Of a stretch of 64,000 bases of DNA, positions 36,351 to 51,459 are shown piece by piece. A program made the translations under genes and the position numbers. The stretch comes from Patescibacteria group bacterium (GTDB lineage: Bacteria; Patescibacteriota; Patescibacteriia; UBA2591; CALHIP01), in assembly GCA_026417895.1 (NCBI GenBank), contig JAOACJ010000014.1, positions 63-64,062 on the forward strand. The letters run 5' to 3'. Under the pieces are notes generated by a model, which searched no databases, was not told where the DNA came from, and saw only the letters and a program-made list of their open reading frames with translations. Numbering within the stretch: the first letter of the stretch is position 1; the number at the start of each line of letters is the position of its first letter.

Positions 36351-36839
36351 TTATCGCGTGATGGAAATATTCGTCGCTGGTGCCTCGGCTCCACAGGCCC
36401 CAACCGTTACTCGACCACCTTCTACTTTTACCGCATAATAGCTAGTATTAGCTGTGCCATTAACTGGATCTGACGGTCGGGTGGAAAGGTAGGTGGGGAC
36501 AAGGGCACTGATAAAATCTTGACCGGTACATCCTTTATTGATAGTGCCAAGATCACCTTTACTACAATCAATGTTGCATTCAGCGGCAGAGGTAGCATTG
36601 CCAATGACTTTTGCGTCTGAGGTTAAACCAGATGGCCAGGAACCGTTATTGTCAATATAATACTGAAAAATGGCATTGAGGATAGCCAAGATATCATTTC
36701 TTCGAGCAGCATTTCTTGCTTGAGCTAATTGCCTGGTCGGATTAACAGCGACAATGACAATGCCGGTCAAAATTGAAATAATGCCAATGACAACCAGAAG
36801 TTCGATAAGAGTAAAACCCTTTTTCTTTTTCATACTCAT
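36351..36839 (-). CDS. type IV pilin (major pilin candidate)
   Basis: Canonical prepilin leader 'MSMKKKKG|FTLIELLVVIGII'. Confidence 0.75.
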   Translation of the reverse strand: MSMKKKKGFTLIELLVVIGIISILTGIVIVAVNPTRQLAQARNAARRNDILAILNAIFQYYIDNNGSWPSGLTSDAKVIGNATSAAECNIDCSKGDLGTINKGCTGQDFISALVPTYLSTRPSDPVNGTANTSYYAVKVEGGRVTVGACGAEAPATNISITR

Positions 36840-36844
36840 AATTT

Positions 36845-37921
36845 TTATTTCTTCAATAGATTTATCTCGACTTTTTGAAAATCTTTTTCTAAGGCTCTCA
36901 GAGCCAAACCGATAACATTAGCCGATAAAATTCTTTTTTCTTCTTGAGCCAAAAAATCACCCTTGATATTTGTTAATGGTTCGCCCCTCGTTGTCTCCAA
37001 ACCAAGTTTTTTTTGAAAATAAGCACTAATGCCTGGCAGTAAACTTGAACCACCAGCCAGAATAATTTTTTTAACTTGATGGTAGGTCGTCTGCTGGTAA
37101 AAGATTAAAATCCTTCTTGCTTCATCAATAATTGGTAGCGCTTCCTTTTTCAAAACTTGTTCTACCTTGGGATATTTCTGAGGACGAAAGCCTTCTGCCA
37201 CTTTTATTTTTTCTGCCTCTTCAAAAGATAAACCAAGAGCTTCTGAGACTTTTTTAGTAAAAAGATTACCAGCGACACGAAGATAATGGTTGAAAACTAA
37301 TCCTCTTTCGTCAAAAAGACTAAAAACACTTGTTCTCTGACCAATATCAATAATCAATATACCTTCATCCTTTGGAATCTCTTTGATTAAAGCTCGTCTC
37401 AAAGAAAGCGGTTCTAAATCAAAAACTATTGGTGTTAAATGAGCAATTTTCAAGGTTTCTTGCCAGTCATCAATTAACTCTTTTCGACAACCAGCAAAAA
37501 AGACTTGTTGGATTTTATTTATTTTACCAATAATTTGAAAATCTGTGTAGAGTTGGGATGTGGATAAAGGAAAAACTTGTTCGGCTTCATAGATTAAGGC
37601 TTCGGAAAGCTCTTTCTGAGTTAAATTGGCGGGTAGTTGAAAAAGATAAGTAAAAACCTGAGAGCTGGGTAAAGAAAGCAAACAAAATTTTTCTTTAATT
37701 GGCCTTGGTTTCGCTTGATCGAGAACCTCTCTAATGTTTTTCGCTAACTCATTTTTTTCTTTAATTAAACCATTTTCTACTAACTGAGCTGATGGTAATT
37801 CTTTATGACCATAACTTTCAATTTCTATTTTACTTCCTTTTCTTTTTAAAATTAAAGCTTCAATCGAGGTATCAGAAACATCTAAACCAAAAGCTTGTTT
37901 TTTTTGGAAACCAAATAACAT
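36845..37921 (-). CDS. pilM: type IV pilus assembly protein PilM
   Basis: Actin-like ATPase fold, 'FGLDVSDTSIEALIL'. Confidence 0.75.
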   Translation of the reverse strand: MLFGFQKKQAFGLDVSDTSIEALILKRKGSKIEIESYGHKELPSAQLVENGLIKEKNELAKNIREVLDQAKPRPIKEKFCLLSLPSSQVFTYLFQLPANLTQKELSEALIYEAEQVFPLSTSQLYTDFQIIGKINKIQQVFFAGCRKELIDDWQETLKIAHLTPIVFDLEPLSLRRALIKEIPKDEGILIIDIGQRTSVFSLFDERGLVFNHYLRVAGNLFTKKVSEALGLSFEEAEKIKVAEGFRPQKYPKVEQVLKKEALPIIDEARRILIFYQQTTYHQVKKIILAGGSSLLPGISAYFQKKLGLETTRGEPLTNIKGDFLAQEEKRILSANVIGLALRALEKDFQKVEINLLKK

Positions 37922-37955
37922 AAATTAGCAATGGGAATTTGAATATTGTCTTATC

Positions 37956-39161
37956 TTATTGTCCTATTTGCCCAATAAATTGATAAATTGGCAGAATAAT
38001 GGAAACGGCTAAGAGACCAACACCCAGACCAATAATAATCAGTAAAATTGGTTCAAGGACACTGGTTAAATTTTTAATCGTTCGATCAACCTCAGTTTCA
38101 TAGAAATCAGCTAAATAATGAAAAGAATCTTCAAGGTTACCAGTTTTTTCCCCGACATTCAAAATTTTTGCTACTGATAAAGGAAATTCTTGGGGAAAGT
38201 TTTCTAAATTTGAGGCAAGGGTTTCGCCGCGTCGAAGAGCGGGAATAATTTTTTCTAAAGTTTTTTTATAAACTTCGTTACCGATTGTTTCAGCGACAAC
38301 TTCAAGAGATTTCGGTAGAGTCAGTCCACTTTTTAAAAGCGTCTCACTCGTTCGGGCAAATTGAGCCAAATTATTATTTTTTGTCAATCGACCAAAAATG
38401 GGTAGTTTAAGATAAAGAATGTGCAAAATCGATTTTATTCTCCTCAGTTGAGAGAGAAACCGAAAAACAATGACTAAGAGGATTAGACCAATAAGAATAA
38501 AAAGTGTATTTTTAGCGAGAAAGTTCATAATAGAGAGAAAAATTTTAGTAATCAGAGGAATAGAAACATCAAGTTTCGCAAAAAGACTAAGAATTTTTGG
38601 TAAAAGAAACTGAGAAAGTGCCAAAGAAAGAAGAATAGCCACGATCACCACAATCGTTGGGTAGGTGAGACTGGCTTTGACCTTTTTTTTCAATTCATAT
38701 GATTTTTCTAATTGTTCAGCCAGATAGACAAGAGAAGATTCTAAAGTACCACTTGACTCAGCTGTTTTAATGACACCAATAAAAAGAGGAGAGAAGTATT
38801 TTGGATAAAGAGCAAAAGAAGAGGATAAAACTTCTCCTTGCTCAACCCTTTTTTGAATTTCCGCCAGAATAGTTTTTAATTTTAAATTTACAGTTTGTTC
38901 AGAAAGAGTTTTTAAAGATTCGCTCAAAGAGAGGCCACTCTTAATCATCATCTGTAAATTTCTGACTAAATTGATTTTTTCTAATTCTGAAATGCGACCA
39001 AAACTGAAAAGAGGTTGTCTTTTCACCCTCTTTGGTATTAAAGAAATAATAATCAAGTCTTGGACTAAAAGCATTTTGGCGGCTTCATCTTTATTAGCTG
39101 CCTCAATTTCTCCTTTTTTTATTTGTCCGGCTTTAGTGGAAACAGTGTATTGAAAAAGCAT
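37956..39161 (-). CDS. pilC: type IV pilus platform protein PilC (GspF family)
   Basis: Two GspF repeats, three TM segments. Confidence 0.85.
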   Translation of the reverse strand: MLFQYTVSTKAGQIKKGEIEAANKDEAAKMLLVQDLIIISLIPKRVKRQPLFSFGRISELEKINLVRNLQMMIKSGLSLSESLKTLSEQTVNLKLKTILAEIQKRVEQGEVLSSSFALYPKYFSPLFIGVIKTAESSGTLESSLVYLAEQLEKSYELKKKVKASLTYPTIVVIVAILLSLALSQFLLPKILSLFAKLDVSIPLITKIFLSIMNFLAKNTLFILIGLILLVIVFRFLSQLRRIKSILHILYLKLPIFGRLTKNNNLAQFARTSETLLKSGLTLPKSLEVVAETIGNEVYKKTLEKIIPALRRGETLASNLENFPQEFPLSVAKILNVGEKTGNLEDSFHYLADFYETEVDRTIKNLTSVLEPILLIIIGLGVGLLAVSIILPIYQFIGQIGQ

Positions 39162-39225
39162 ACCAATTTTCTTATCTCTTAAAAATTTTAAGATATCATT
39201 GAAAAAATTTTTACTAGAAAATTGA

Positions 39226-39311
39226 GTACCCGCGTACAGGGCCGTTAGGCGGTTTCGCCTTTAGTCTTTCTCTGTCGGAAGTTTATCGCTGGAATAAGTG
39301 CGGGGTAAGGG
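39226..39311 (-). ncRNA. conserved structured element, copy 2 (pilB-pilC intergenic)
   Basis: The minus strand reads 'cccttaccccgcacttattccagcgataaacttcc...aaaggcgaaaccgcctaacgg...gtacgcgggtac'. Same orientation relative to its downstream gene as copy 1. Confidence 0.35.
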
Positions 39312-39364
39312 TTTTCTGGATAAATTTTCTACAACTTTTGTCTTGAAAATTTATATAAAATTCT

Positions 39365-41056
39365 TTATTTAGTTACTCTTAAAACCTCTTCAACTGTTGT
39401 TAAACCCAAAAAGACTTTTTCTAATCCATCTTCAATCATCGTCGTCATTCCTTTTTGACAAGCCAGAGTTCTTATTTCGTCGGTATTTGCCTTTTGCATA
39501 ATTCTTTCTTTAATTTCTTCTTCTGGTTCCAACACTTCAAAGATACCAGTTCGTCCTGCATAACCAGTTTGATGACAAGCTTCACAACCAAGACCATGGT
39601 AAATTCTTATTTTTTCCTTATTTTGAATTGATTTTAAAAAGCGAGTTGGTAAATTACCAACACCGCTGAGTAAACTAAGAAATTCTTTCTGACTAATTTC
39701 TTCACTGACAATACACTTTCGACAGATAAGCCTGACTAGTCTTTGGGCAATGATGACATTGACTGTCGAAGCAATTAAAAACGGCTCAATGCCCATATCC
39801 ATTAGCCTAACTATGGTTGTCGGCGCATCATTGGTGTGCATCGTCGAAAGAACAAGATGGCCGGTCAAGGCGGCATTAACAGCAATGCCAGCTGTTTCTT
39901 GATCTCGAATTTCACCAACCATTAGAATATCGGGGTCTTGTCTAACTAAAGCCCTTAACCCTTGAGCAAAGGTTAAATTTGTTTTTGGATTAACTTGAAT
40001 CTGATTAACGCCCTCAATGTCATATTCAACCGGATCTTCAATAGTGGCAATATTAATATCTCTTTTATTGAGAATTTTTAAAATGGCGTAAAGGGTAGTG
40101 GTTTTACCACAACCAGTTGGTCCGGTAGCTAAAATCATTCCCCACGGCTTTTCAATATTAGCTCGGACAACTTTTTCATCTTTTGCTAAAAAACCAAGAT
40201 CTTCTAAATTAAAACGTCTGATCTTTTCGGAAAGCAATCTTAAAACTGCCTTTTCTCCTTTAGTCACCGGAACAATCGAAACACGGATATCAACTTTTTC
40301 ATTTTCGAATGTTTCTGAAAATCGACCGTCTTGAGCGGCAAAATGCTCATCAGTTCTGAGTTTAGCCAAAAGTTTAATTCGGGAAATAATATAATCATGA
40401 ATATCTTTTGGCAATTCTAAAACATCATGAAGAATTCCGTCAATTCTGAATCGGACAACTGTTTTTTTCTCAAATGGTTCGAAGTGAATATCTGAAACTC
40501 GATTTTGATAAGCGTAATTAATAATTGTGTCTAAAATTTTAATGATCGGCAACTCTTTTTCCTCCTCTTCTGCTTTTTTAGTATATTCTTCAATCAGATT
40601 TTGAAATTCTTGCTTTAATCCCTTTTTGTATCGGACTAGATTTTCTTTTAAATCTTTTTCGGTCGCATAATAAGGGATAACTTTAAAACCAGTCTTTTTT
40701 TCGATTAAAGAAATAATCTCTAAATCTCCCGGATTATTCATTGCTAGCTTAATTTTCATTCCTTTTAGATCTTGACCGAAGGCCATTACCTTTTGTTTTT
40801 TAGCCACCACTTCTGGAATTATATTTAAATCATCTTCTTTAATAATTTCTTTTTTTAAATTGACAAAAGGATAGCCAAGAAATTCTGCTTTGAGTTGTCC
40901 TAACTGTTCATCGCTCATTTTGCCTGAGCTGATAATTAACTCCTCTAAATTTTTGTTTTCTTCTTGAGCTTGTTTCTCTAAATTTTGAAAATCTTCAGGA
41001 CTTAAAAATCCCGGCTCAACTAGAATTTTCTTCAATTGTTCACTTGTTAGTTCCAT
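39365..41056 (-). CDS. pilB: type IV pilus assembly ATPase PilB (GspE family)
   Basis: Walker A 'GPTGCGKTTT', tetracysteine 'CRKC...CEAC'. Confidence 0.9.
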   Translation of the reverse strand: MELTSEQLKKILVEPGFLSPEDFQNLEKQAQEENKNLEELIISSGKMSDEQLGQLKAEFLGYPFVNLKKEIIKEDDLNIIPEVVAKKQKVMAFGQDLKGMKIKLAMNNPGDLEIISLIEKKTGFKVIPYYATEKDLKENLVRYKKGLKQEFQNLIEEYTKKAEEEEKELPIIKILDTIINYAYQNRVSDIHFEPFEKKTVVRFRIDGILHDVLELPKDIHDYIISRIKLLAKLRTDEHFAAQDGRFSETFENEKVDIRVSIVPVTKGEKAVLRLLSEKIRRFNLEDLGFLAKDEKVVRANIEKPWGMILATGPTGCGKTTTLYAILKILNKRDINIATIEDPVEYDIEGVNQIQVNPKTNLTFAQGLRALVRQDPDILMVGEIRDQETAGIAVNAALTGHLVLSTMHTNDAPTTIVRLMDMGIEPFLIASTVNVIIAQRLVRLICRKCIVSEEISQKEFLSLLSGVGNLPTRFLKSIQNKEKIRIYHGLGCEACHQTGYAGRTGIFEVLEPEEEIKERIMQKANTDEIRTLACQKGMTTMIEDGLEKVFLGLTTVEEVLRVTK

Positions 41057-41057
41057 A

Positions 41058-41426
41058 TTAAAGGTGTTTTTTTATTCTTTCCACTACTTCCGGCAGTGAT
41101 TGTTGAGATTTAACAAGATAATCAACGGCGCCAAATTTCAAAGCTTTTTCCCGATCTTGTTCTTGACCCAAACAGGAAAGAATGATAATTTTTGTTTCTT
41201 TTATCTTATCACTTTTTTGTTTTTCGGCCAAAAATTCAAAACCATCCTTTTGGGGCAAAATCAAATCAAGGACAATCAAATCATATTTTTTTTCTTGAAT
41301 TTTTTTTAGGGCCTCTTCACCATTAAAAGCTGTTTCAACCTCTAAATTAGTCTCAGAACTAGCTAACTTTGAGGCCAAAAGTTTGGCCAAAAATTGATCA
41401 TCCTCAACAATAAGAATTTTTTTCAT
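41058..41426 (-). CDS. response regulator, receiver domain only (PilH/CheY-like)
   Basis: 'ILIVEDDQF...DLIVLDLILPQKDG'. Confidence 0.8.
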   Translation of the reverse strand: MKKILIVEDDQFLAKLLASKLASSETNLEVETAFNGEEALKKIQEKKYDLIVLDLILPQKDGFEFLAEKQKSDKIKETKIIILSCLGQEQDREKALKFGAVDYLVKSQQSLPEVVERIKKHL

Positions 41427-41487: not shown

Positions 41488-42708
41488 TTATTTGTTGGTA
41501 TCGATTTGGTCTTTTAATTTCGTCTTTTCGTAGGGGAGGGTAAAATAGAAAGTTGAGCCCTTATTTTCTTCTGATTCAAACCAAATTTTGCCTTTTAAAT
41601 CATCGATAAGTTTTTTAACAATATAAAGGCCCAAACCAGTACCGTCGGGTTGATAACGAAGAGCATTGGGTGCCCGAAAGAATTTTTGAAAAATATCTTT
41701 TTGTTTATCTTTAGGAATACCAATCCCTTCATCTTTGATAGAAATTATAATTTCTGTATCAGTTTTTCCGGCAGTAATTTTAATTTTTCCGCCTGGTCGA
41801 GAATAATTGATGGCATTTGAAAGAATATTATTAAAAATAATCTCTAAGAATTTCTGGTCCAAGAAAACTTTAGGTAAAAACTGCTTTTCAAAAATAATTT
41901 TTAATCCCTTTCCCTCGATTAAAAAATTAAACTGTTTAATTTTTTCTTCTAAAAAGAGATTAAGGTCTGTCTCTTGACTTCTGGTTTTAATTGGTTTTCC
42001 ATCTAAATCAGTAATGGCTAAAAGATCGTTCACTGATTTCATCATTTTTATCTGGGCGCGCTTAATTTCTTCCAGATATTCTCTTTTTTCTACGTCAACT
42101 TTTTTATTCTCAAGTAATTCGTCGGTGATCCAACCAATTGAAGAAATCGGCCCACGTAACTGATGACTGGCAATGGTAATAAACTCACTCTTTTTTTCGT
42201 CAAGTTCTTTCAAAAAATCAATTTCTTTTTTAGCTTGAAGGGCAAGAAGAAAACTTAAATAACTAATAATCGCCACCGAAGAAAGACTTAAAAAAACGAA
42301 ATCAAGAAAAAACGAAATTTTTAACCAGATACTTAAACCAAACATTAAAAGATAATAAAAAACAATAATGATTAATAAACCAATGAGAGCTGGAATATGG
42401 GCAGTGGAAGCGGCGGCTAATAAAGGTAAAAAAATAAAAGGAAAAAGCGGGCTTTGGAAAGAACCGCTGAAGTGGATAAATAAAAGGATAAAAAGGGTAT
42501 AAAAACCTAAATCAATAAAAAATTTTTCATAACGCCAATATCTTTTTGAGATGAAAAATAAACTGATGAACGAATAAAAAGTCATGGCAACGATGATAGA
42601 TAGAAACCAGAGAGATTCTTTAGGTGGGAAAAAATAAAACCAAACGAGGAGAATCAAAATTAAAATTGGCACTACTAAACGAAAAATTTTATGATACTGT
42701 TCGTACAT
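41488..42708 (-). CDS. sensor histidine kinase (polytopic N-terminus, PilS-like)
   Basis: H-box 'ASHQLRGPISS', HATPase 'GTGLGLYIVKKLIDDLKGKIW'. Confidence 0.8.
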   Translation of the reverse strand: MYEQYHKIFRLVVPILILILLVWFYFFPPKESLWFLSIIVAMTFYSFISLFFISKRYWRYEKFFIDLGFYTLFILLFIHFSGSFQSPLFPFIFLPLLAAASTAHIPALIGLLIIIVFYYLLMFGLSIWLKISFFLDFVFLSLSSVAIISYLSFLLALQAKKEIDFLKELDEKKSEFITIASHQLRGPISSIGWITDELLENKKVDVEKREYLEEIKRAQIKMMKSVNDLLAITDLDGKPIKTRSQETDLNLFLEEKIKQFNFLIEGKGLKIIFEKQFLPKVFLDQKFLEIIFNNILSNAINYSRPGGKIKITAGKTDTEIIISIKDEGIGIPKDKQKDIFQKFFRAPNALRYQPDGTGLGLYIVKKLIDDLKGKIWFESEENKGSTFYFTLPYEKTKLKDQIDTNK

Positions 42709-42866
42709 ATTTAAATTTAAAGTTCAGAATCAACTCGCCAAAGTATCAATGTCTTTGATAAACATTATATCATAGAATTTCTTTAATGTCTAATTTTATC
42801 CACAGGACGGCAATTAAAAACGATGGTAAAATGAAATATCAATAAAAAAATTCCACCAGTTATTCT

Positions 42867-43334
42867 ATGAGTATATTCTCATACTTTCGTAAAATTTTCA
42901 TATTTCGCAAAAGCCTCTCTTTTTCCTTTCTCGAAGGTCTTCTGGTTATTGCCATTTTAGGTATTATTTTTTCCTTAAGCACCATTGCTTTCATTCGTTT
43001 CCAAAAAACTTACGAATTGAAAACAACAGCTAATGAATTGTTTCAGAATTTAAAAAGGGCGCAGGCTAAAGCCATGTCCCAAGAACAAGATAAAAATTGG
43101 GGGATAAAATTTGAGCCAGAAAACAAAAAATATTATCTTTGTTCGGATAATTGCACGACTAATCTTGAAACGTTTACTTATTCAACGAACATCAATCTGA
43201 CTTCTTCTCTCAATCCAATTATTTTCCAAAAACTTTCGGGTACACTGACGACGGCTGGCACCATCAATCTTAATCTTGATTCTCAGACTAAAACGATTAC
43301 TATTACGACAGCTGGTTTGATTATTCTTAATTAA
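42867..43334 (+). CDS. prepilin-like protein (atypical, Ser at -1)
   Basis: 'KSLS|FSFLEGLLVIAILGII' has Phe+1, Glu+5 and a hydrophobic helix. Confidence 0.45.
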   Translation: MSIFSYFRKIFIFRKSLSFSFLEGLLVIAILGIIFSLSTIAFIRFQKTYELKTTANELFQNLKRAQAKAMSQEQDKNWGIKFEPENKKYYLCSDNCTTNLETFTYSTNINLTSSLNPIIFQKLSGTLTTAGTINLNLDSQTKTITITTAGLIILN

Positions 43335-43752: not shown

Positions 43753-43762
43753 AAAAATAATT

Positions 43763-44674
43763 ATGAAAAGATCTTTTTCTCTCATTGAATTAATGGTTGC
43801 TTTGGGCGTTTTTGTTTTGGTGGCGAGCGCCATCATTTTTTTAGTCATTGGTAGTCAGCAATGGCAAAAGGTTTCTCAAGAAAGAGCAGTTGCTATCCAA
43901 CTGGCTCAAGAGGCGATGGAAGCAGTTCGTTCGATTCGTGACCGCGATTGGAACGAATTAAAAACAGATTCGCGGTGTAGTGAGCAAAATCTAAGAACAC
44001 GAACTTATGGTTTAAAAATTGTCAATAATGCTTGGACTTTAAGTACGCTTGAAATTGATAAAAAAGTGACCCTTAACAACAAAGAATATACCCGCCTCAT
44101 TAAAGTAGATTGTGTTTTTGAAAATGGCATTGCCAATCCAGACAAGAAAAAAATTACCGTTGAAGTTTCCTGGGGTGTCCTACCTGGTCGGTCAATTAGT
44201 TTAGTTTCTTATTTGACCAACTGGCGATCTGCTGATTTTGCCACTAAAACCAAAGGCGATTTTGAAGCCGGCGTTTTTGAAAACACTAAATTAATTGATG
44301 GCAACAATCCGATTATCAAACTTGATGATTTGGCTGGTGCCACCATCCGAGCTAATGAGTTTTTTATTGATGGTTTTACCAACACTTCAGAAATTACCAC
44401 TAACAAAAAAATCTCCTTCCGTTTTACCGCCCAAAACAACAAGACTCCTAATCAGGTCAAATTTTATATTAATCAAGTTTCTCAGCCTGGTACTTTTCGG
44501 GCTGGTTTACAGAACAATGCTAATGGTCAGCCATCCGGCACTTGGCTTTGTTCAAATATCTTTTCGGTCCAACAAAATTTCATCGGTTGGCAAACAGTTA
44601 ATCTTTCCGGTTGCCCAGCAATCGGTCCTAATACCGATTATAAAATTGTCCATCTCGTCATTGAGCCACAATAA
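43763..44674 (+). CDS. prepilin-type minor pilin / pseudopilin (303 aa)
   Basis: 'MKRS|FSLIELMVALGVFVLV'. Confidence 0.65.
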   Translation: MKRSFSLIELMVALGVFVLVASAIIFLVIGSQQWQKVSQERAVAIQLAQEAMEAVRSIRDRDWNELKTDSRCSEQNLRTRTYGLKIVNNAWTLSTLEIDKKVTLNNKEYTRLIKVDCVFENGIANPDKKKITVEVSWGVLPGRSISLVSYLTNWRSADFATKTKGDFEAGVFENTKLIDGNNPIIKLDDLAGATIRANEFFIDGFTNTSEITTNKKISFRFTAQNNKTPNQVKFYINQVSQPGTFRAGLQNNANGQPSGTWLCSNIFSVQQNFIGWQTVNLSGCPAIGPNTDYKIVHLVIEPQ

Positions 44675-44714: not shown

Positions 44715-44963
44715 ATGCCTCAAGATAAAATTATTTTAAAATTATTAGAGCATGATGAACGATTAGAGAGAATCGAGGAGAAAATGGCAACAAAAGACGA
44801 TATGAGAGAAATTATGGAAATGCTGGAGGGAATTACCACCATTGCTCAGCGCCTTGATCAAGAAAGAATTTTTACGGCTGAATGGGTTAAGCGCATCGAG
44901 AAAGAAGTTGAAGAACATCGCCAGGAAATTATCAAAATTAAAAAAGTTTTAAAAATTACTTAA
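44715..44963 (+). CDS. small helical protein, paralog 2
   Basis: See paralog 1. Confidence 0.35.
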   Translation: MPQDKIILKLLEHDERLERIEEKMATKDDMREIMEMLEGITTIAQRLDQERIFTAEWVKRIEKEVEEHRQEIIKIKKVLKIT

Positions 44964-44990: not shown

Positions 44991-47900
44991 ATGAGGAAAA
45001 AAATTTTTAAAATTTTGTTGCCGGGTTTGGTTACTTTAACCCTCATTTTTTCTTTTTTTGAATTTAACCTTCACTCTTTTTTTCTTCAGGCTCAAGAGGC
45101 AATGAAAATTGAAGTACCAATTGAAATGGTTGACTATGGCTTGGCTTCGTCAAGAGAAGCGACTCTTTTTAATCGGACAAAAATCTTTCTTGACCCCAAT
45201 GATTATCAAGCTGATTCAACCAATTACTTTTTTGAAATCGTGGCTATAAATACAGATGAAAGAGAGGGAAGAGTTGTCTTGGTTGATTCTAAGAAGCAAC
45301 CAGTCGCCGAGATTACTGTACCACCCCAGACCAATCAACCAGCCCGTTTTAGAACAAAAGAGCCTTTTAGTTTATCTCAGGATGAATATCTTATTATACT
45401 GGAAGGAACCTCAGCAGAGAATCAACTTCAGGTTTATGCCGCCAGAATTATTATTCAACAAACGAATCCTCAAGTAACAAGAATCCAAATTCCCTTAACC
45501 AGCGGTCCAGATGATAGTTATTCTTTTAAAGAGACAGCAATTGATCAAGTAGAAAGTGGAAATTATATTCAGCCACAACCTCAATTTTACCATCTCTGGT
45601 CCTATCGTTCTCTTGATTGGGTGAGTTTAGCTGAGAGTAATCCTTTTACCTTAGAAGCTGTTTTAGCCGGCGATATTAGTGCTGCACTTTTTGATCAAAA
45701 TAATCAAATAGTTAGTGGTTCAGAAATTTCTGTCTCCAGCCAAACTCCTCTTTTGATGCAAAAAGATTTTACTGATTTAGTTGATGCTACTTATCAGTTA
45801 AAAATTAGAGGTAGAGAAGGCTTAATTTATCGGGCTGCTCTTTATCTGAGATTAACCAATCCAATAGCTTTAGAAATTTATTATCGTTATCAAAGAATGA
45901 GACAGTCTCAGACAGCTGAAATTAGAAGCTATCAAAGAGTGCTTTATGATGCCAGCCAATTTCCTGAGCATCAGATTTATCATGAAGCAACCGGTCAAGG
46001 GCAAAACCTAATGGCTGTCATTTACGACCATAGTCAAAATGAGAGCGGTACTACCAATGGCAACAACATTGAATCTTCAGCTATTAATTTTAACTCATCA
46101 GAGAAAATATTAATGCGGACTTCTCCTTTTTCTCTAACCTCTGGCAACCGCTTTATTTATTCTGTTCTTGGCGAAAGTGGCGATTTAATTTTAACCAGCG
46201 CCTCAATAGTCATTAAAATTGGTCAGCCAAAAATTGACCAGACCCACTATCGCTGGCGCAATGATAATGGTGGAGAATTGGGCGGTAATTTTGAGGTAGT
46301 TACACTTTTGCCCAATGGTAATGGTGACGAAATTACTTGGACCCCTTATCCTAATACTCCCAATCATTATACTTTAGTCGCTGACGAAAGTGATAACTCA
46401 TACGTTTATAAAACCATTCAGACCGATCTGGCCATTTTCCGTTTCGGTCTTAAAGAAAGTAATGGTTCTGTCTCTAGTTTTTCTGTTACTTTGACAGGAG
46501 ATTATGCTGAGTATTCTTATCAATGGAGTGTTAAACCATCAAATGGTCAGCCTTGGACACCTAGCGCGATTAATGATTTACAGATTGGGGTGGCCTATAA
46601 TATACTTGAAGAAATACCAATACCAGGTAAAGGAGAGATACCTGAAGAAAAAGAAGAATTAGAAGAGTCGTTTCATATTGCAGACCTTTCTTTACCTACT
46701 GGTGTTGTCATTGATTATGTTAAAGTCTTTGTCCGGGCTAAAAGGGTCTGTCGTGTAGGTCCTGAATGGCCTCCAACTTATAATTGTACTGCTTTTACGG
46801 CGAAAATGTGGGCAGAGGTTAAGTATTATCCCGGCGCGACCTATAAAGCTGACGAGGATACGCCCGTGACCAATCAAGTAAAAAATAAAAATGTCCGTTT
46901 AAGATTTTCTTTGAAGAATACCGGCTCAGCTCCAGCGGTTAATTATCAATATCGCCTCCAAGTGGCTCCAAAAGGTACGGCTAGTAGTTGCCTAGAAGTG
47001 CCGCCTGAAAATTATACGGATGTGCCAACAGCTGGGAACTGTGGTTCAGCTGTTGCTTGTATGGCTGATTCTTCATATCTTGATGATGGCCAAGCAACAA
47101 CCTGGCAACTGAGTGGGCCGGGTGAAGATTGGACTTGGGCAGACGGTAAAATAGTTGAAAGGCCTTCTAATCAGACATCTCAATTTACTTTAGAAACGAA
47201 ATCTTTTACGGAATTTGAATATAATTTTCAATTCACTAATAATGCTATTGGCGGCGCTACCTACTGTTTTCGGTTATCAAATGCTGGTGAAGGTTTGGAT
47301 AATTATAATCAAATCGCGGCTATTACCTTATTACAAACACTACCATCTTTCCGTCTTAGAGTCTCCACACCCTTAAATTATAAACAGCCCTATAATCATT
47401 CTGAGCCGGCTAAAAATTTTAATGACTCCGCTTCTAATGTGCTTTATTGGAACGGCTCGTCTTGGCTGGTTCAAAACCAACAACCGATTTATCTTATTGG
47501 TTTTAGCGATGGTAGTTTTGAGGGAAATCCGTATGATGAAGAGAATCAAACCGATAACCAGATTAATAGTTCTTCAATAAAAATTGGTCAACAATTTACC
47601 GTGCCAGCTGGAGCAGCAACTCAAAAAGTCATTCAGACTAGCTTTTATCTTAAAAAGACAGGCAACCCACCAGATCTTCTTCTTACTTTAGAAAAAGTTG
47701 GTGGTAGTTCGGTTACAAAAACTATTTCTGCCAATACCGTCTCTAATCAATATGCTTGGGTCGAAGCACCAGCTTTTGATGAAGCCTTTAATTTAGAAGC
47801 CAATGCCACTTACCGCCTTTATCTTTCTTGTGCTGGCTGTAGTGCAAACAATTATTATCAAGTCAAAAGATTAAAAACAATGAGTGGAATCAATAGTCTG

Positions 47901-50309
47901 ACTTATGATGGTGGCATTGATTCAGGATTAATTTATACTACCACAGGTACCTTTGGCAACCCTATAAATAACGAAGATACTCTTTTCCGTCTTAAAGAAT
48001 TTGCTGGCTTTCCAACTACTGGCAATTATATTTCTGCCCAAACATCTACCGGTAGCACAGCTACTACTTATTCTCATCTTGATTGGAAACAAGAAATTCC
48101 GAGCGGTGAAGTTTGTCCCACCGATCCAGTTCGTTTTCAAATTGGCACCGCTAACTTAGTCAGTGGTAGTTGTCCAGCCAGTCCGAATGCCTATTCCTAT
48201 TATGGCCCAAATGGTATCGGTGGTCCAATGTGGTGGTATGAAGAAAACGGTGTTCGTTGGAAAAAACGGCGTTCGATTACTATCAATAATCCCAGTGGTC
48301 AGGAATTAAAAAATTATCAAATTCTGTTGACTATAAATACCGCCGAATTAATCTCGGCTGGCGAATTACAAAGTGATTGCGATGATCTTCGATTTACCAG
48401 TTTATCTGGTGCCAGTCTAAATTATTGGCTCGAATCTGGTTGTAATACCTCTCAAACAAAAATCTGGGTGAAAATTCCTTATCTTCCTGCTACTCCCACC
48501 TCTAACACTACTAAAATTTATCTTTATTACGGCAACGCCAATGCCTCCTCTGCCAGCAACGGCGATGCGACGTTTATTTTCTTTGATGATTTCAACGGCA
48601 CGAGTTTGGATACGAGCAAATGGACAGAGCAAAAAGGTGGGACAACGAGTTTAAGTGTTAATAATGGTCAGATTACTTTTCATCATCCAGCCGTCCAGGG
48701 TAATTATATTTGGATCTATTCTAATAATAAATTTTCTTACCCAGTTTGGCAGGAGGTGAGATGGATTTCTTTTGACATCAGCGATGCCACGCCTCGATTT
48801 GGACAATCAACGACTACCAATTTAAGGACGAATGGTAATTATTATAATAATTATTCTGCTGATGTGGGTTTCAACTCGGCATATAGAATTGTCGGCGACA
48901 ATTCAAATAGTGGTTGGACTGTTTCTTCTACTTCAGTGAGTGGCCAGCGGCCTGAGATTTGGAGTTTTGCCTGGCCAGCCACTGGTTCGCAAATTTTTAG
49001 AAAAAATTACTCTTTACTATTGACCGGCAGTGATAATATAAACACTATCGCCGATTATTATCTTTATTTAGGCATAGCAGAGCGGACGGCAAATCAGACA
49101 GCTGTTGCTGATTGGGTACGTGTCCGTAAGTACGTCTCAGTAGAGCCAACACAGGGAGGATGGGGTGAAGTAGAAACATATAGTCCAGAAGATTATTACG
49201 CCGGCGACCTAAATACCTACTGCCAAAATGTGACCGGTGGTCAATTCTGTTCCCGCGAAATTTGTCCGGATCGACTGGCTGGCTTTCAATATCGCAAAAA
49301 AATTAACTTAACCGGTGCTCAAGGCGCTGGTAATGGCTATCAAGTGAAATTAAAAATTGGCAAAACTTCAGCTGCCATCGGTGAAGATTTTGACCTCAAT
49401 GGTAATGTTCAAGATTCTTTCAATGATATTAGGTTTACTGATGACGATGGTGTGACTTTATTGAATTACTGGATAGAATCAGTGGCTGATAGTGGCGGAA
49501 CGAAATTAGCGACAGTTTGGGTAAAAGTGAATGATAATTTAGATAATAATCAGTCGATTTATATCTATTATGGCAATGCCAATACCTCTTCAGCCAGCAA
49601 TGGTGAAGGTACTTTCGTTCATTTTCAAGATTGGAATAATTCAAATGGCTGGACTTTAAGCAAATCTTCAGTTTCTAATAGTGAACTTTTTCTTGACCCC
49701 GATGGTTTTCAGCCAGCAGCTTCAGCAAGGCGAACCGAGTTGTTGGGGGCAGGCTATGCTTTGCGAAGTCGACTTGACTGGGCTGATGAAGGCGGGCCAT
49801 GGAAAGAACAAGGGTTTGGTTGGGGTGATTTTGATCACTCATACGAATACGGCAATCATCAGGTTCGAAATGGTATTTGGGTAAGATGTTTCTATGGGTC
49901 ACCTTATCCAACTCAGTTTATTACTAAAAAAGACGGCATTGAAACATACACTCAGGTGACTTCTTTTCGGACAGGAGGATACAACACAGTCGAACTTCGT
50001 TGGCCATCTAATACACGAGCAGAGTTTTCTTTAAATGATGATGCGCCGGTTGTTCATACTACTAATATTCCTACTGGTAGTTATTATCAACATCATTGGT
50101 ATCAGTATTTCGGTACCGCTATTCAAAAAGTAGATTGGACTTTAATTCGTAAATATGTTTATCCGGAGCCAGCTATTCAATCAATCGATGCCCAGGAAAT
50201 AGTCTATCCTCATCAGAACCAGCCCTGCCTACGCTACCGATTTTTACTTCTCAACTGTCAAAACAACTCACCAAAAGTTAAGGAAGTCAAAGTCAATTAT
50301 ACACCATAA
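44991..50309 (+). CDS. giant secreted protein (1772 aa) with two DUF2341-like plus LamG/ConA-like modules
   Basis: Signal peptide. Repeated module 'DCDDLRFTS..LNYWLES...KIWVKIPYLP...KIYLYYGNANASSASNG..TFIFFDDFNG' and 'DIRFTDD..LNYWIES...TVWVKVNDNL...IYIYYGNANTSSASNG..TFVHFQDWN'. Confidence 0.55.
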   Translation: MRKKIFKILLPGLVTLTLIFSFFEFNLHSFFLQAQEAMKIEVPIEMVDYGLASSREATLFNRTKIFLDPNDYQADSTNYFFEIVAINTDEREGRVVLVDSKKQPVAEITVPPQTNQPARFRTKEPFSLSQDEYLIILEGTSAENQLQVYAARIIIQQTNPQVTRIQIPLTSGPDDSYSFKETAIDQVESGNYIQPQPQFYHLWSYRSLDWVSLAESNPFTLEAVLAGDISAALFDQNNQIVSGSEISVSSQTPLLMQKDFTDLVDATYQLKIRGREGLIYRAALYLRLTNPIALEIYYRYQRMRQSQTAEIRSYQRVLYDASQFPEHQIYHEATGQGQNLMAVIYDHSQNESGTTNGNNIESSAINFNSSEKILMRTSPFSLTSGNRFIYSVLGESGDLILTSASIVIKIGQPKIDQTHYRWRNDNGGELGGNFEVVTLLPNGNGDEITWTPYPNTPNHYTLVADESDNSYVYKTIQTDLAIFRFGLKESNGSVSSFSVTLTGDYAEYSYQWSVKPSNGQPWTPSAINDLQIGVAYNILEEIPIPGKGEIPEEKEELEESFHIADLSLPTGVVIDYVKVFVRAKRVCRVGPEWPPTYNCTAFTAKMWAEVKYYPGATYKADEDTPVTNQVKNKNVRLRFSLKNTGSAPAVNYQYRLQVAPKGTASSCLEVPPENYTDVPTAGNCGSAVACMADSSYLDDGQATTWQLSGPGEDWTWADGKIVERPSNQTSQFTLETKSFTEFEYNFQFTNNAIGGATYCFRLSNAGEGLDNYNQIAAITLLQTLPSFRLRVSTPLNYKQPYNHSEPAKNFNDSASNVLYWNGSSWLVQNQQPIYLIGFSDGSFEGNPYDEENQTDNQINSSSIKIGQQFTVPAGAATQKVIQTSFYLKKTGNPPDLLLTLEKVGGSSVTKTISANTVSNQYAWVEAPAFDEAFNLEANATYRLYLSCAGCSANNYYQVKRLKTMSGINSLTYDGGIDSGLIYTTTGTFGNPINNEDTLFRLKEFAGFPTTGNYISAQTSTGSTATTYSHLDWKQEIPSGEVCPTDPVRFQIGTANLVSGSCPASPNAYSYYGPNGIGGPMWWYEENGVRWKKRRSITINNPSGQELKNYQILLTINTAELISAGELQSDCDDLRFTSLSGASLNYWLESGCNTSQTKIWVKIPYLPATPTSNTTKIYLYYGNANASSASNGDATFIFFDDFNGTSLDTSKWTEQKGGTTSLSVNNGQITFHHPAVQGNYIWIYSNNKFSYPVWQEVRWISFDISDATPRFGQSTTTNLRTNGNYYNNYSADVGFNSAYRIVGDNSNSGWTVSSTSVSGQRPEIWSFAWPATGSQIFRKNYSLLLTGSDNINTIADYYLYLGIAERTANQTAVADWVRVRKYVSVEPTQGGWGEVETYSPEDYYAGDLNTYCQNVTGGQFCSREICPDRLAGFQYRKKINLTGAQGAGNGYQVKLKIGKTSAAIGEDFDLNGNVQDSFNDIRFTDDDGVTLLNYWIESVADSGGTKLATVWVKVNDNLDNNQSIYIYYGNANTSSASNGEGTFVHFQDWNNSNGWTLSKSSVSNSELFLDPDGFQPAASARRTELLGAGYALRSRLDWADEGGPWKEQGFGWGDFDHSYEYGNHQVRNGIWVRCFYGSPYPTQFITKKDGIETYTQVTSFRTGGYNTVELRWPSNTRAEFSLNDDAPVVHTTNIPTGSYYQHHWYQYFGTAIQKVDWTLIRKYVYPEPAIQSIDAQEIVYPHQNQPCLRYRFLLLNCQNNSPKVKEVKVNYTP

Positions 50310-50372
50310 AATAAAATTTTTAATTTCTAATTTTGAATTTTGAATAAATTTTTAATGGTCTAATTTTGAAAG

Positions 50373-50678
50373 ATGAAGAAATATGATTTAGAAGAGAGAA
50401 CGGCAAATTTCGGTGAAAAGGTAATTAAATTCTGTAAAAATTTAAAACAAGATGCTATTTCTAAACCGATTATCAGTCAATTAATTCGCTCAAGCACGAG
50501 TATCGGTGCCAATTATATGGAAGCTAACGCTGCCAGTTCAAAGAGAGATTTCAAAAATAAAATTTTTATCTGTAAAAAAGAAACTCAAGAAACAAAACAC
50601 TGGTTACGGATGTTGGCTCAATATTTCTCAGAGAGAAGCAGTGAAATCAAAAACTTTGGCAAGAGGCACAAGAGTTGA
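50373..50678 (+). CDS. four-helix-bundle protein (23S rRNA intervening-sequence protein family)
   Basis: 'SQLIRSSTSIGANYMEA...KRDFKNKIFICKKETQETKHWL' matches the family pattern. Confidence 0.65.
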   Translation: MKKYDLEERTANFGEKVIKFCKNLKQDAISKPIISQLIRSSTSIGANYMEANAASSKRDFKNKIFICKKETQETKHWLRMLAQYFSERSSEIKNFGKRHKS

Positions 50679-50718
50679 CTTTAATTTTCGGCAAAATTAT
50701 TGGCTCACTCAATAAAAA

Positions 50719-51459
50719 ATGATTTTTAAAATTCAAAAATTCAAAATTGATTCAAAATTAAAAATTCAGAATTCAGAATTGACAAATAAAGGTTTTACTC
50801 TCATTGAAATTCTCTTATACTTGGCCATTGTTTCGGTAGTGCTGGTTGTCGGCACTATTTTTATTTGGCAGGTCATTGAGGGTGGCGAGCGGGCGAATCA
50901 ATTAGAAGAACTGCGCGAAGCCAGCCGTTTTGTTTTAGAAAAAATCAGTCAAGAGGTAAAAAAAGCTAGAAATGTTTTAGATCCACCGAGTTGTCAGAAA
51001 TTTACCAATCAAACAGATTGTCAAAGTTATTGGGCTTGTCTCTGGCAGAATAACAAATGTTTTGTTACTTGCACTAGATACAACAATCAGCCTGATTGCG
51101 AAAATCATAATTGTATCTGGAGTAACGGTGTCTGCAGTGGCAGTGAGCCAAAAAATCTCTGCCCAGTCGATCCGGAAAACAATAAAGAAACTTGTTTAAC
51201 GATTGCCAAACCTGATGGAACTATGGTTAAATTTTATCGCCAAACTTATACAAATGTGAAAAGGATTGTTCAAAAAACAGGAAACAACGAGCCAGTAGGT
51301 TTGACCTCTGGCTTAGTTGACATTACTTCGTTGAAAATTGCTAATCTTTCACCCGACAAAGGATCAGGCATCATTAGAATCGAAATGACCTTAAAACACA
51401 AAAATAATCCACGTCTAACCTTTACTGCCCAATCTTCTATTTCTTTACGCGATAATTAA
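50719..51459 (+). CDS. prepilin-type protein with Cys-rich globular domain
   Basis: 'TNKG|FTLIEILLYLAIVSVV', then 10 Cys ('CQKFTNQTDCQSYWACLW..CFVTC..'). Confidence 0.6.
   Translation: MIFKIQKFKIDSKLKIQNSELTNKGFTLIEILLYLAIVSVVLVVGTIFIWQVIEGGERANQLEELREASRFVLEKISQEVKKARNVLDPPSCQKFTNQTDCQSYWACLWQNNKCFVTCTRYNNQPDCENHNCIWSNGVCSGSEPKNLCPVDPENNKETCLTIAKPDGTMVKFYRQTYTNVKRIVQKTGNNEPVGLTSGLVDITSLKIANLSPDKGSGIIRIEMTLKHKNNPRLTFTAQSSISLRDN

Follow-up and report, generated by a model that had tools for sequence, protein, structure and literature searches.

The minor-pilin operon of Pseudomonas aeruginosa, fimU-pilVWXY1Y2E, contains pilY1. Proteins of the PilY1/PilC1-PilC2 type are large, Sec-exported non-pilins encoded within minor-pilin operons and have been proposed to act as tip adhesins and as partners of the priming complex. 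Four-gene cassettes of the Verru_Chthon type likewise encode, besides prepilin-like proteins, a single very large one, protein A. In archaeal Epd-like loci (arCOG03508), a large DUF2341 protein, predicted to be a tip or accessory component, is encoded among the pilin genes, and such giants recur in the type IV filament (Epd) loci of Methanococci (PMC4858521, PMC10133366). The giant secreted proteins of Omnitrophota carry attachment and carbohydrate-binding modules, and their genes follow T2SS/T4P-like loci that contain class III signal-peptide genes, with small pilin-like genes nearby (bioRxiv 10.1101/2023.11.21.568195). In Nanosynbacter lyticus TM7x, whose envelope has no outer membrane, the pili T4P-1 and T4P-2 are built without a secretin from PilB, PilC, PilM, a small major pilin and several elaborated minor pilins with lectin-like extra domains, and a role in host-glycan binding has been proposed (PMC11623550).

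Features of these systems are found in a locus within a 64-kb stretch of DNA (the window), taken from a contig labelled at NCBI as Patescibacteria group bacterium. All 13 genes were found at the coordinates given in a preliminary description, and profile searches bore out their identities. The minus arm encodes a pilin, PilM, PilC, PilB, a receiver-only regulator and a histidine kinase with six transmembrane (TM) segments, in agreement with Pfam profiles; the plus arm encodes three minor pilins, two small helical proteins, a 1772-aa DUF2341 protein and a four-helix-bundle (4HB) protein. The results support a monoderm/CPR-style (ComG/T4aP-like) chromosomal type IV pilus cluster of a Patescibacteria host without an outer membrane, as had been proposed. 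PilN, PilO, secretin, PilD and PilT domains were absent from the ORFs of the locus and from ORFs of at least 200 aa lying wholly inside the window, a set to which an ORF of approximately 701 aa at 61898, running off the window end, does not belong. The reported lack of pilN, pilO and pilQ thus held, and pilD and pilT, which the earlier description proposed to look for elsewhere, were not among the scanned ORFs either. A motif scan of the window revealed no prepilin beyond the four of the locus. PilD, PilT and a fourth minor pilin may be encoded elsewhere in the genome. The explanation that we prefer, at a probability of about 0.5, is a rearranged CPR pilus cluster together with a giant surface adhesin that binds glycans and is expressed in concert with the pilus.

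The core machinery lies on the minus strand, and its four ORFs are intact and full length. The candidate major pilin (36351..36839, 162 aa; N_methyl 1.1e-9) has the leader MSMKKKKG|FTLIE with Gly at -1 and a single, N-terminal hydrophobic helix; its top NCBIfam matches are GspG/ComGC-type N-termini under the cut-offs, and it shares 41% identity with the pilin that ends a relative's operon (L005). PilM (36845..37921; PilM_2 1.1e-44, FtsA 1e-12), an actin-like cytoplasmic assembly protein, ends in ...VEINLLKK and shows no hydrophobic or TM segment by hydropathy, while the platform protein PilC (37956..39161; T2SSF in two stretches, 1.2e-51) shows three strong TM segments. The PilB-type extension ATPase (39365..41056; T2SSE 9e-130) has MshEN (6.6e-10) as its N-domain, contains a CxxC...CxxC motif and is 59% identical to PilB of Parcubacteria DG_74_3. 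Judging from their families, PilB, PilC and PilM would polymerise the 162-aa pilin, primed by the three minor pilins (H/D-like, I/V/E-like and J/W/F-like).

The start of pilB is separated by 1 nt from the gene of a receiver-only response regulator (41058..41426, minus strand, 122 aa; Response_reg 1.2e-24), in which Pfam detected no output domain. Beside it lies the histidine kinase gene (41488..42708, minus strand; HisKA 8.7e-9, HATPase_c 9.2e-29). By family, the membrane-embedded kinase would phosphorylate the regulator, and since the receiver gene abuts pilB, the regulator most likely works through protein contact rather than transcription. It resembles PilG and PilH as a single-domain receiver, but no Chp chemosensory genes are present, and it differs from PilR in having neither AAA+/sigma-54 nor HTH domains. 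The kinase had been called PilS-like. This is true of its topology only: hydropathy indicates a membrane-embedded N-terminal domain with approximately six hydrophobic segments within the first 160 aa and, as in PilS, no extracytoplasmic domain, but a PAS domain is missing and the top NCBIfam matches are the cores of PnpS, WalK and PhoR rather than PilS. In 7 of 80 genome loci, including four CPR loci, pilB has a receiver gene at a distance of 150 nt or less, and the kinase-receiver pair or the receiver alone stands inside or beside the pil operon in six relatives (L004, L005, L006, L010, L017 and L094). This recurrence supports the assignment of the pair to the pilus cluster and agrees with the earlier view of a pilus locus with its own two-component system. 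The two-component system occurs here and in Parcubacteria-type relatives, whereas the text on the TM7x pili mentions none (PMC11623550).

The divergent intergenic region between the arms (42709..42866) holds the top minus-strand promoter-like site (42792-42764, TAGACA-17-TATAAT with TG), a match to consensus at 11/12. The plus arm begins with mp155 (42867..43334), a GspH/ComGD/FimU-like minor pilin whose NCBIfam scores for ComGD (2.5e-8) and GspH (3.5e-7) are both under the cut-offs; GspH in Pfam reaches 0.0033. The PilV/ComGE/GspI-like mp303 (43763..44674, plus strand, 303 aa; N_methyl 3.5e-4, ComGE 6.9e-7) has a sub-threshold DUF4082/Big_7 match. Its AF2 model is confident for a helix (4-61) and a sheet (80-152), of low confidence at 157-228, where two segments have pLDDT <50, and contains an extra C-terminal beta module at approximately 229-303 (pLDDT 62-86). 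The PilW/ComGF/GspJ-like mp246 (50719..51459, plus strand; N_methyl 7e-6) carries a Cys-rich insert and matches ComGF (1.4e-4), PRK10557 (7e-5) and, above its cut-off, TIGR02532 in NCBIfam. The ComG-family scores of the minor pilins all lie below curated cut-offs and cover mainly the N-terminal helix. The beta module of mp303 and the insert of mp246 recall the extra domains of the TM7x minor pilins. The weak matches of mp155 and mp246 to Verru_Chthon proteins D (TIGR02596) and C (TIGR02599) are confined to the N-terminal helix, at 17-25 bits against cut-offs of 70 and 256. The true start of mp246 is more likely the in-frame TTG at 50779, the leader then being MTNKG|FTLIE; the 25-residue leader from ATG 50719 is a translated arm of an AT-rich inverted repeat. 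As previously read, two of the four prepilins, mp155 and mp303, have Ser instead of Gly at -1 (KSLS|FSFLE and MKRS|FSLIE), and the closest homologue of mp303 (P0018) has Ala.

The nearest relatives available are distant (PilB 41-59% identical), and their operons (L004-L007, L010, L017, L093 and L094) are colinear, in the order pilB-pilC-three minor pilins-fourth, cap-like minor pilin-pilM-pilin, with neither the giant gene nor the small helical genes. Homologues of mp155 stand directly after pilC (L004-L007, L017, L093), those of mp246 come directly after the mp303 homologue (L004-L006), and the three genes overlap or lie at most 21 nt apart. In the window, this block is relocated and inverted, the mp155-mp303 gap is 428 nt and the mp303-mp246 gap approximately 6 kb, so that both pilin-pilin junctions, tight in relatives, are broken by non-pilin genes. 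The fourth (cap-type) minor pilin, 32-62% identical across six relatives, gives no tblastn match better than E = 1.7 anywhere in the 64 kb. The "two-armed" layout is thus, by comparison of gene order, a lineage-specific rearrangement. The comparison shows a single colinear operon, pilB-pilC-four minor pilins-pilM-pilin, as the ancestral state, whose minor-pilin block moved and inverted in this lineage to its present place, divergent upstream of the kinase; its junctions were interrupted by the two helical proteins, a frameshifted 4HB cassette and the 1772-aa gene.

The mp155-mp303 junction is split by the gene of hel115 (43405..43752, plus strand, 115 aa), a small cytoplasmic helical orphan with no family in Pfam, NCBIfam or PHROG and no relative among the fetched loci, phages and metagenome contigs. 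Just upstream of it is the top plus-strand promoter-like site (43359-43386), again an 11/12 match to consensus only. The second small helical protein, hel82 (44715..44963, plus strand, 82 aa), belongs to a conserved Patescibacteria family of 80-82 aa with 30 homologues (45-73% identical) and matches phrog_25353 (2.9e-4). Homologues up to 73% identical stand in contexts unrelated to pilus genes, for example flanked by SPP and ABC-transporter genes in L089 and following pheT in L091, and the family is not pilus-specific. The 4HB cassette (50315..50780, plus strand) contains an ORF (50373-50678) of the 23S-rRNA-IVS-protein family (23S_rRNA_IVP 5e-14; TIGR02436 5.5e-18), which is frameshifted, its last helix ELTLIFGKIIGSLNKK sitting in another frame. 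In this detail and in the start of mp246, the plus arm departs from the preliminary description, which had otherwise placed its genes correctly. The cassette is bracketed by 57-nt AT-rich inverted repeats; the arms of I1, the longest inverted repeat of the window, form a stem in the MFE and the centroid structure alike (z = -0.56), and the 4HB genes of L087 and L045 are flanked by similar repeats. Because hydropathy shows no signal, TM or hydrophobic segment in hel115, hel82 or the 4HB protein, and their genes are missing from the pil loci of all relatives examined, these proteins are not parts of the pilus, contrary to what had been suggested.

The giant secreted mosaic protein (44991..50309, plus strand, 1772 aa) comprises module A (~37-410), module B (~613-782) and two DUF2341 + LamG-like units (~1080-1772; DUF2341 in two stretches, 2.1e-48); LamG is associated with DUF2341 in one homologue. 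Its only hydrophobic segment is N-terminal (5-23), and its homologues have AxA cleavage sites right before a conserved LEVPIEMVDYG. We infer a Sec-type signal, by which the protein would be exported; the proposed TM7x adhesins PilX1 and PilX2, in contrast, are pilins. No NCBIfam model, no sequence match in the PDB and no full-length homologue in 1.8 billion representatives was found. The AF2 model of module A is all-beta (pLDDT 92), with Foldseek matches to CBM-bearing enzymes, SGBP-B, BcsB and Vip3/Cry domains at a TM of only ~0.2. From these low-TM, domain-level matches, the protein reads as a lectin-like, sugar-binding-like beta-sandwich mosaic. A link to the pilus is plausible. Its GC3 (0.296) falls in the range of the window's genes (0.23-0.36), the rise in GC over the gene stemming from codon positions 1 and 2. 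The gene shares its strand with the two minor-pilin genes between which it lies, and only 27-63 nt separate it from the adjoining genes, an arrangement that suggests co-transcription with the minor pilins, and the protein may act as a glycan-binding surface adhesin expressed together with the pilus. A strong promoter-like site before hel115 and AT-rich repeats around the 4HB gene speak against co-transcription. Relative to the Omnitrophota giants, the protein is much smaller and has no SecA-like domain, its host is a monoderm CPR, and its gene lies inside a minor-pilin operon rather than downstream of a secretion locus.

As no cell-wall or membrane anchor is recognisable beyond the signal peptide, the giant protein needs some partner to remain on the cell. 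This favours the possibility that it docks on the minor-pilin priming complex as a PilY1-like non-pilin at the pilus tip, fills the cap position of the missing fourth (ComGG/GspK/PilX-like) pilin, conserved in six relatives, and binds host-cell glycans. The gene position and Sec-type rather than prepilin signal recall pilY1, DUF2341 proteins are predicted tip components of Epd pili (PMC4858521), and transformation-defective mutants of M. maripaludis had hits in a DUF2341 gene of the epd locus (PMC10133366). Prepilin N-termini occur in two module-A proteins (P0124, P0184), and TM7x pili bind the host by lectin-like modular minor pilins (PMC11623550). In a Dehalococcoidia MAG (L022), pilB, pilC and a pilin-like gene precede an ORF that codes for 2468 aa or more; its product begins like a pilin and contains PKD repeats as well as two DUF2341 domains. 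This is, however, the only one of 160 sampled bacterial PilB loci with DUF2341, and both a giant gene and DUF2341 are absent from all of the approximately 19 CPR-type PilB loci, near which the large ORFs are LigA, EF-G, RNR, an ABC transporter and Wzy_C. The giant gene was thus not syntenic with pilus genes in any relative at the range sampled. CPR-like DUF2341 giants (P0064, P0050) adjoin Sec-secreted cohesin/WxL-like surface proteins, not pilins, module A occurs mainly in lipoproteins and secreted enzymes without pilus context, and the genes inserted next to the giant are demonstrably unrelated to pili. The likeness to PilY1 is one of gene position and signal type; no relationship in sequence or fold was found, and the PilY1/Neisseria_PilC propeller and vWA domains are absent. 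The Epd loci differ in that the machinery here is bacterial PilB/PilC and the two DUF2341 units are joined to modules A and B, unrelated to the archaeal proteins. We regard the earlier proposal of a giant-tipped pilus as possible, but less likely than the preferred reading.

Doubtful, in our view, is a pseudopilus that serves mainly ComG-like DNA uptake and not adhesion or motility, in which the giant is unrelated cargo of the rearrangement. The top NCBIfam matches of the three minor pilins (ComGD, ComGE and ComGF), the absence of PilT from the window and a 1084-aa LTD x4-PKD-OB-fold protein 3.5 kb downstream would fit this function, and Patescibacteria pil clusters have been interpreted as DNA-uptake pseudopili (PMC11809585). 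These ComG matches are sub-threshold, however, PilM is a T4aP and not a ComG feature, a ComGG-like pilin is missing, neither ComEC nor ComEA was identified in the window, and TM7x T4P-2 mutants lost host binding yet stayed competent (PMC11623550). The loss of the fourth minor pilin from the window, the two interrupted junctions, the frameshifted 4HB neighbour and Ser at -1 in place of the Gly or Ala of relatives could also mean that the relocated arm is in decay and has ceased to form a working priming complex. This is improbable: the three minor pilins, like the pilin, PilB, PilC and PilM, are intact and full length, the prepilins retain F+1, E+5 and the hydrophobic helix, a high-confidence pilin fold is predicted for mp303, and the sole frameshift affects a gene that has nothing to do with the pilus. 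Small residues (G/A/S) at -1 are known to be tolerated in class III signals of archaea and, in part, by PilD of bacteria. The rearranged cluster with a pilus-coupled surface adhesin remains the preferred reading.

The 203-nt spacer between pilB and pilC (39162..39364) contains a GC-rich 70-nt element for which Rfam gave no match. It is one copy of the direct repeat D13 (28748-28817 and 39260-39329), which has the exact 17-nt core GGAATAAGTGCGGGGTA and whose second copy stands upstream of mraZ.

The open reading frames mapped between positions 36351 and 51459 bore out the gene layout that the preliminary description had proposed for the pilus locus. The minus arm encodes (Pfam E-values in brackets) a prepilin of 162 residues that is the candidate major pilin (pilin162; N_methyl, 1.1e-9; leader MSMKKKKG followed by FTLIE), PilM (1.1e-44), a PilC/GspF platform protein (T2SSF, 1.2e-51, in two stretches), an assembly ATPase of the PilB/GspE family (T2SSE, 9.1e-130; MshEN N-domain, 6.6e-10), a response regulator of 122 residues matching Pfam as a receiver only, and a histidine kinase (41488-42708) with HisKA and HATPase_c domains and about six hydrophobic segments within residues 1-160. 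The divergent plus arm encodes three prepilin-like proteins, mp155 (GspH/ComGD-like), mp303 (PilV/ComGE/GspI-like) and the Cys-rich mp246 (PilW/ComGF-like), together with two small helical proteins without a hydrophobic segment (hel115, 115 residues; hel82, 82 residues), the giant protein of 1772 residues (44991-50309) with two DUF2341 domains (PF10102, 2.1e-48) and a four-helix-bundle protein (23S_rRNA_IVP/TIGR02436). The class III prepilin signal, which consists of a basic leader, a small residue at -1, F+1, E+5 and a hydrophobic helix, is present in four proteins of the locus. Two of these pass the N_methyl cut-off, and mp303 reached 20.5 bits against a cut-off of 21.2. Direct reading verified a Ser at -1 in two of the four, as had been described, and a motif scan of the window found no further prepilins. 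The AlphaFold2 model of mp303 has high pLDDT over residues 4-152, and we infer a modular pilin whose fold is predicted confidently and whose C-terminal beta module is predicted with moderate confidence.

The noted absence of PilN, PilO and a secretin also held for the locus and for the ORFs of at least 200 residues lying wholly inside the window, a set that leaves out an ORF of about 701 residues at 61898 running off the window end. The same set contained neither the prepilin peptidase PilD (Peptidase_A24) nor a second T2SSE protein that could represent PilT, the retraction ATPase of T4aP systems; in three of the relatives' PilB loci (L062, L063, L071) a second T2SSE protein adjoins pilB. An Rfam scan of the locus at E up to 1 returned tRNA only. 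The gene setting is that of a housekeeping chromosome (LigA, GatA, MreBC, PBP2, MraZ/MraW, FtsI, a Mur ligase, Def and two tRNAs), and the NCBI label of the contig is Patescibacteria. Judged by the sequence features of its ATPase, platform protein, prepilin and PilM, the core of the locus belongs to the type IV filament superfamily. From what is known of the family, PilB, PilC and PilM would build the filament from pilin162, with the H/I/J-like minor pilins priming assembly. The ComG equivalog models scored the minor pilins below cut-off throughout (ComGD 34 bits versus 70, ComGE 29 versus 49, ComGF 22 versus 80) and the window lacks a ComGG-like fourth pilin; on these predicted proteins the locus does not belong with the ComG equivalogs. 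Type IV pilus loci of CPR bacteria are already a well-described class, and the unusual part here is the rearranged minor-pilin operon.

This operon departs from an ancestral colinear order: it has been rearranged, the fourth minor pilin of relatives (mp4) is absent from the window and the junctions between the remaining genes are interrupted. For the comparison, 80 loci each were collected from species-representative genomes and from metagenomes with PilB as the query. The closest PilB proteins are those of Parcubacteria DG_74_3 (L004, 59% identical), L005 (57%), L006 (56%), L093 (55%) and L007 (50%). No closer relatives for a synteny test were found in these collections, in which the best PilB matches were 59% (genomes) and 55% (metagenomes) identical, and the lineage is therefore poorly sampled. 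The best homologue of mp303 is 50% identical and lies on a 1-kb contig. Seven of the relatives (L004, L005, L006, L007, L017, L010 and L094) carry a single colinear operon with the order pilB-pilC-mp155-mp303-mp246-mp4-pilM-pilin. In the window, the minor-pilin block does not lie between pilC and pilM, and is inverted and divergent from the kinase gene. The mp4 protein of relatives has 135 residues, is of the cap type (ComGG/GspK/PilX-like, without Glu5) and is 32-62% identical among six relatives. It gave no tblastn match with E <1.7 across the 64 kb, while mp155, mp303 and mp246 were readily detected between the window and the relatives that carry mp4. The three minor-pilin genes of relatives are spaced by at most 21 nt or overlap; the spacing of the same genes in the window is 428 nt, with hel115 inside, and about 6 kb, with hel82, the giant and the four-helix-bundle gene inside.

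The small inserted genes are absent from every relative's pilus locus examined, and neither a signal peptide nor a transmembrane segment was found in the hel115, hel82 or four-helix-bundle proteins. Non-pilus contexts show that hel82 is not pilus-specific: its family comprises well-conserved Patescibacteria proteins of 80-82 residues (30 matches, up to 73% identity), whose genes have a signal-peptide-peptidase gene on one side and an ABC transporter on the other (L089) or follow pheT (L091). No relatives of hel115 were detected in Pfam, NCBIfam, PHROGs, the fetched loci, phages or metagenome contigs. The two small proteins have no mutual similarity and were rejected as paralogues.

The four-helix-bundle product (50373-50678) scored 52.9 bits against PF05635 (cut-off 33.8) and 65.2 bits against TIGR02436 (cut-off 24), with only profile positions 3-82 matched. 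Its ORF is frameshifted, the last helix lying in another frame, where its end would overlap the annotated start of mp246 in an ATGA. It is bracketed by the longest inverted repeat of the window (57 nt, 77% complementary, AT-rich and periodic), whose arms pair in both the MFE and the centroid folds, the overall energy being not unusual (z = -0.56). All three four-helix-bundle ORFs encountered (window 50315-50780; L087, 22071-22543; L045, 9293-9759) sit inside protein-coding operons of three different lineages and are bracketed, just outside the ORF, by AT-rich, periodic inverted repeats of 31-57 nt that could close a long stem. Stem-enclosed ORFs are contained in 23S rRNA intervening sequences, which these cassettes resemble but from which they differ in their location inside protein-coding operons. 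The arrangement points to a cassette capable of inserting between genes. The odd 25-residue 'leader' of mp246 is explained by the right repeat arm; with the in-frame TTG at 50779 as start, the canonical leader MTNKG followed by FTLIE is obtained. The Avd protein of diversity-generating retroelements is a relative of the four-helix-bundle family; such an element, with an Avd-like role for the protein, was rejected as the scanned ORFs contain no reverse transcriptase domain and the window no long direct repeat and no template/variable repeat pair. Further AAAATT-type periodic A-tract repeats were observed in intergenic regions at 4175-4227, 51500-51533 and 62310-62353. They are mutually similar or complementary to the arms around the four-helix-bundle gene and could be AT-rich signals of intergenic regions in general, not specific to the cassette.

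The giant is modular. No full-length homologue was found among 5.8 billion protein clusters or 1.8 billion representatives, and its modules alone recur. Since its only hydrophobic segment (residues 5-23) aligns with signal peptides of homologues that end in AxA directly before a conserved LEVPIEMVDYG, the giant is predicted to be Sec-type secreted or N-anchored by a putative signal and not a prepilin. A cryptic prepilin N-terminus was rejected on the same alignment, in which the Sec signals of the homologues end in AxA before LEVPIEM. Homologues of module A (residues ~37-410, window 45099-46220) number in the hundreds; most are lipoproteins or secreted multi-domain proteins that contain beta-helix, GLUG or fn3 domains. 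The module made up about half of the best 150 matches listed among the 1.8 billion representatives. It is extracellular, about 380 residues long and widespread, occurring alone or fused to such proteins, and Pfam has no model for it. Its AlphaFold2 model is all-beta (pLDDT 92, pTM 0.91), and Foldseek returned domain-level likeness, at low global TM, to CBM-bearing glycosidases, B. thetaiotaomicron SGBP-B, BcsB, tandem CBM22 and the Vip3/Cry receptor-binding domains. Module B (~613-782) is a repeat often seen in giant proteins, and several of those contain DUF2341 too. The C-terminal 700 residues contain the two DUF2341 units; in one homologue a LamG/concanavalin-like region comes after DUF2341. 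Neither a C-terminal transmembrane segment nor a sortase-type motif was found in the giant. Binding of glycans and retention on the cell through the pilus are both speculative. The higher GC content of the gene (0.39-0.42) had suggested recent horizontal transfer. This was unsupported: the excess resides in codon positions 1 and 2, and GC3 is 0.296, inside the range of the window genes (0.23-0.36), so that the composition gives no sign of such an event.

The preliminary description had read the giant as the tip or a decoration of the pilus, a partnership that should be visible as synteny of the giant and the small genes with pilus genes in relatives. Over the phylogenetic range sampled, this synteny was not found, given that the giant gene occurs in none of about 19 CPR-type PilB loci and the DUF2341 HMM was positive in one of 160 PilB loci (L022). 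The giant is a DUF2341 protein whose relatives do not conserve pilus synteny: no pilus genes were found around the module-A and DUF2341 homologues at L001-L003 and L084-L088, and two CPR-like DUF2341 giants (P0064 and P0050, at L087 and L088) have Sec-secreted cohesin/WxL-like proteins as neighbours and no pilins nearby. Module-A proteins without pilus context, and the genes inserted beside the giant that are unrelated to pili, likewise argue against a tip adhesin. The reading preferred here claims less: following a lineage-specific rearrangement, the giant would be expressed together with the minor pilins and act as a lectin-like adhesin on the cell surface.

A tip adhesin is nevertheless favored by the position of the gene, which lies on the same strand as its neighbors, 27-63 nt from them and between two minor pilins. 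In proteobacterial minor-pilin operons, such a position is held by pilY1, and the giant matches it. Like PilY1, the giant is a non-pilin with predicted Sec export encoded within a minor-pilin operon; however, the C-terminal beta-propeller of PilY1/Neisseria PilC was not found, DUF2341 is the sole Pfam match of the giant and there is no PDB sequence match. Lacking the propeller, the giant falls outside the PilY1 family. It has no anchor of its own, and the cap pilin is missing within the window. Precedents come from archaea, in which large DUF2341 proteins were proposed as tip components of Epd pili (Makarova et al., PMC4858521) and a DUF2341 gene of the Methanococcus maripaludis epd locus was repeatedly struck in transformation-defective mutants (PMC10133366). 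Among bacteria, a Dehalococcoidia MAG (L022) has pilB, pilC and a pilin-like gene, and next to these an ORF whose product, at least 2468 residues long, has a pilin-like N-terminus, nine PKD and two DUF2341 domains. Two module-A proteins have canonical prepilin N-termini. Giant genes of Omnitrophota likewise have T2SS/T4P-like loci before them (bioRxiv 10.1101/2023.11.21.568195), and TM7x binds its host via lectin-like minor pilins (PMC11623550). These distant convergent cases keep the tip adhesin alive as a possible but rather unlikely reading. A bolder version is more doubtful still, namely that a Sec-exported, anchorless multi-lectin protein of 1772 residues replaced the capping minor pilin (ComGG/GspK/PilX-type) of a monoderm CPR pilus and that the three minor pilins still present carry it at the tip.

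For host contact in CPR bacteria, type IV pili are the organelles with the best support, and it is probably the proteins at their tips that set host range. The locus represents a natural experiment, in which a conserved, tight four-gene minor-pilin operon has lost its cap pilin, at least from the 64 kb, and gained a giant lectin-like protein between two of the remaining pilins. Were the giant pilus-borne, a tip adhesin could be swapped by gene insertion instead of pilin-domain fusion, and bacterial DUF2341 proteins would be linked to the pilus-associated ones of archaea. Replacement of the cap would further provide an independently evolved bacterial counterpart of archaeal Epd DUF2341 proteins and PilY1, and would mean that horizontally shuffled adhesin modules can take over the tip position of a type IV filament. 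If the giant is not pilus-borne, the locus calls for caution: operons of CPR bacteria receive small selfish-looking cassettes and surface-protein genes, and gene adjacency is therefore weak evidence of function there.

The locus had also been credited with its own two-component system. The kinase and receiver do go with the pilus genes, but they are not peculiar to the window: one or both genes lie inside the pil operon or directly upstream of pilB in L004, L005, L006, L007, L017, L010 and L094, which makes them a conserved trait of the clade. In PilS-PilR systems, the regulator combines a receiver with an AAA+ sigma-54 activator and an HTH domain, and the kinase has six transmembrane segments, PAS, HisKA and HATPase domains. 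The regulator of the window is a 122-residue receiver without the output domains, and the kinase, with its approximately six hydrophobic segments, HisKA and HATPase_c, lacks PAS and did not match a PilS-specific model. From this predicted domain content, the pair is not a member of PilS-PilR. Drawing on family knowledge, the kinase would sense a membrane or envelope signal and phosphorylate the regulator, which probably acts on the motor via protein contact, since it has no output domain and its gene lies 1 nt from pilB. The kinase counterparts in L004 (11691-12413) and L005 (9132-9848) are soluble HisKA-HATPase cores of 238-240 residues without a sensor domain, while the kinase at 41488-42708 has the N-terminus with about six transmembrane segments.

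Several minor observations were made in the compared loci and around the pilus genes. Paralogous minor pilins encoded in the same operon carry near-identical C-terminal modules in relatives (L005, 3282-6425; L006, 12729-13793 and 15037-16035), which suggests recent copying of modules between tip pilins. Two pilins of L005 have an identical Cys-rich module of about 168 residues and a third a diverged copy; in L006, a 197-residue module is common to mp155 and mp4 at 95% identity. A similar motif, CxxxNQxxC...CxW, is found in the Cys-rich insert of the window's mp246. The C-terminus of PilM (36845-36870, ...VEINLLKK) resembles the PilM-binding INLLP peptide of PilN, and is followed by neither a transmembrane segment nor a PilN gene. 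The PilM ORF of L005 runs on into a transmembrane segment and an extracellular domain, in a sequence that contains Ns. Large ORFs beside the pilins of relatives were considered as unrecognised adhesins and rejected, as they encode LigA, EF-G, RNR, an ABC transporter and Wzy_C. The Wzy_C protein, an O-antigen-ligase-like membrane protein encoded directly after the pilin gene of a Doudnabacteria pilus locus (L026, 15912-17984), may be a pilin glycosylation enzyme. A protein of 1084 residues encoded 3.5 kb downstream of the pilus locus (55021-58275), with four lamin-tail domains, a PKD domain and a C-terminal DUF5689-like OB-fold of the nucleic-acid-binding kind, may bind DNA outside the cell, which would bear on DNA uptake. 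Finally, a GC-rich element of 70 nt without a match in Rfam is present in the 203-nt pilB-pilC spacer (39260-39329) and just upstream of mraZ (28748-28817). Its absolute orientation is identical at both sites and hence opposite to the pil genes, and the two copies share an exact core of 17 nt (GGAATAAGTGCGGGGTA), a match for which about 0.06 occurrences would be expected by chance on a rough estimate.
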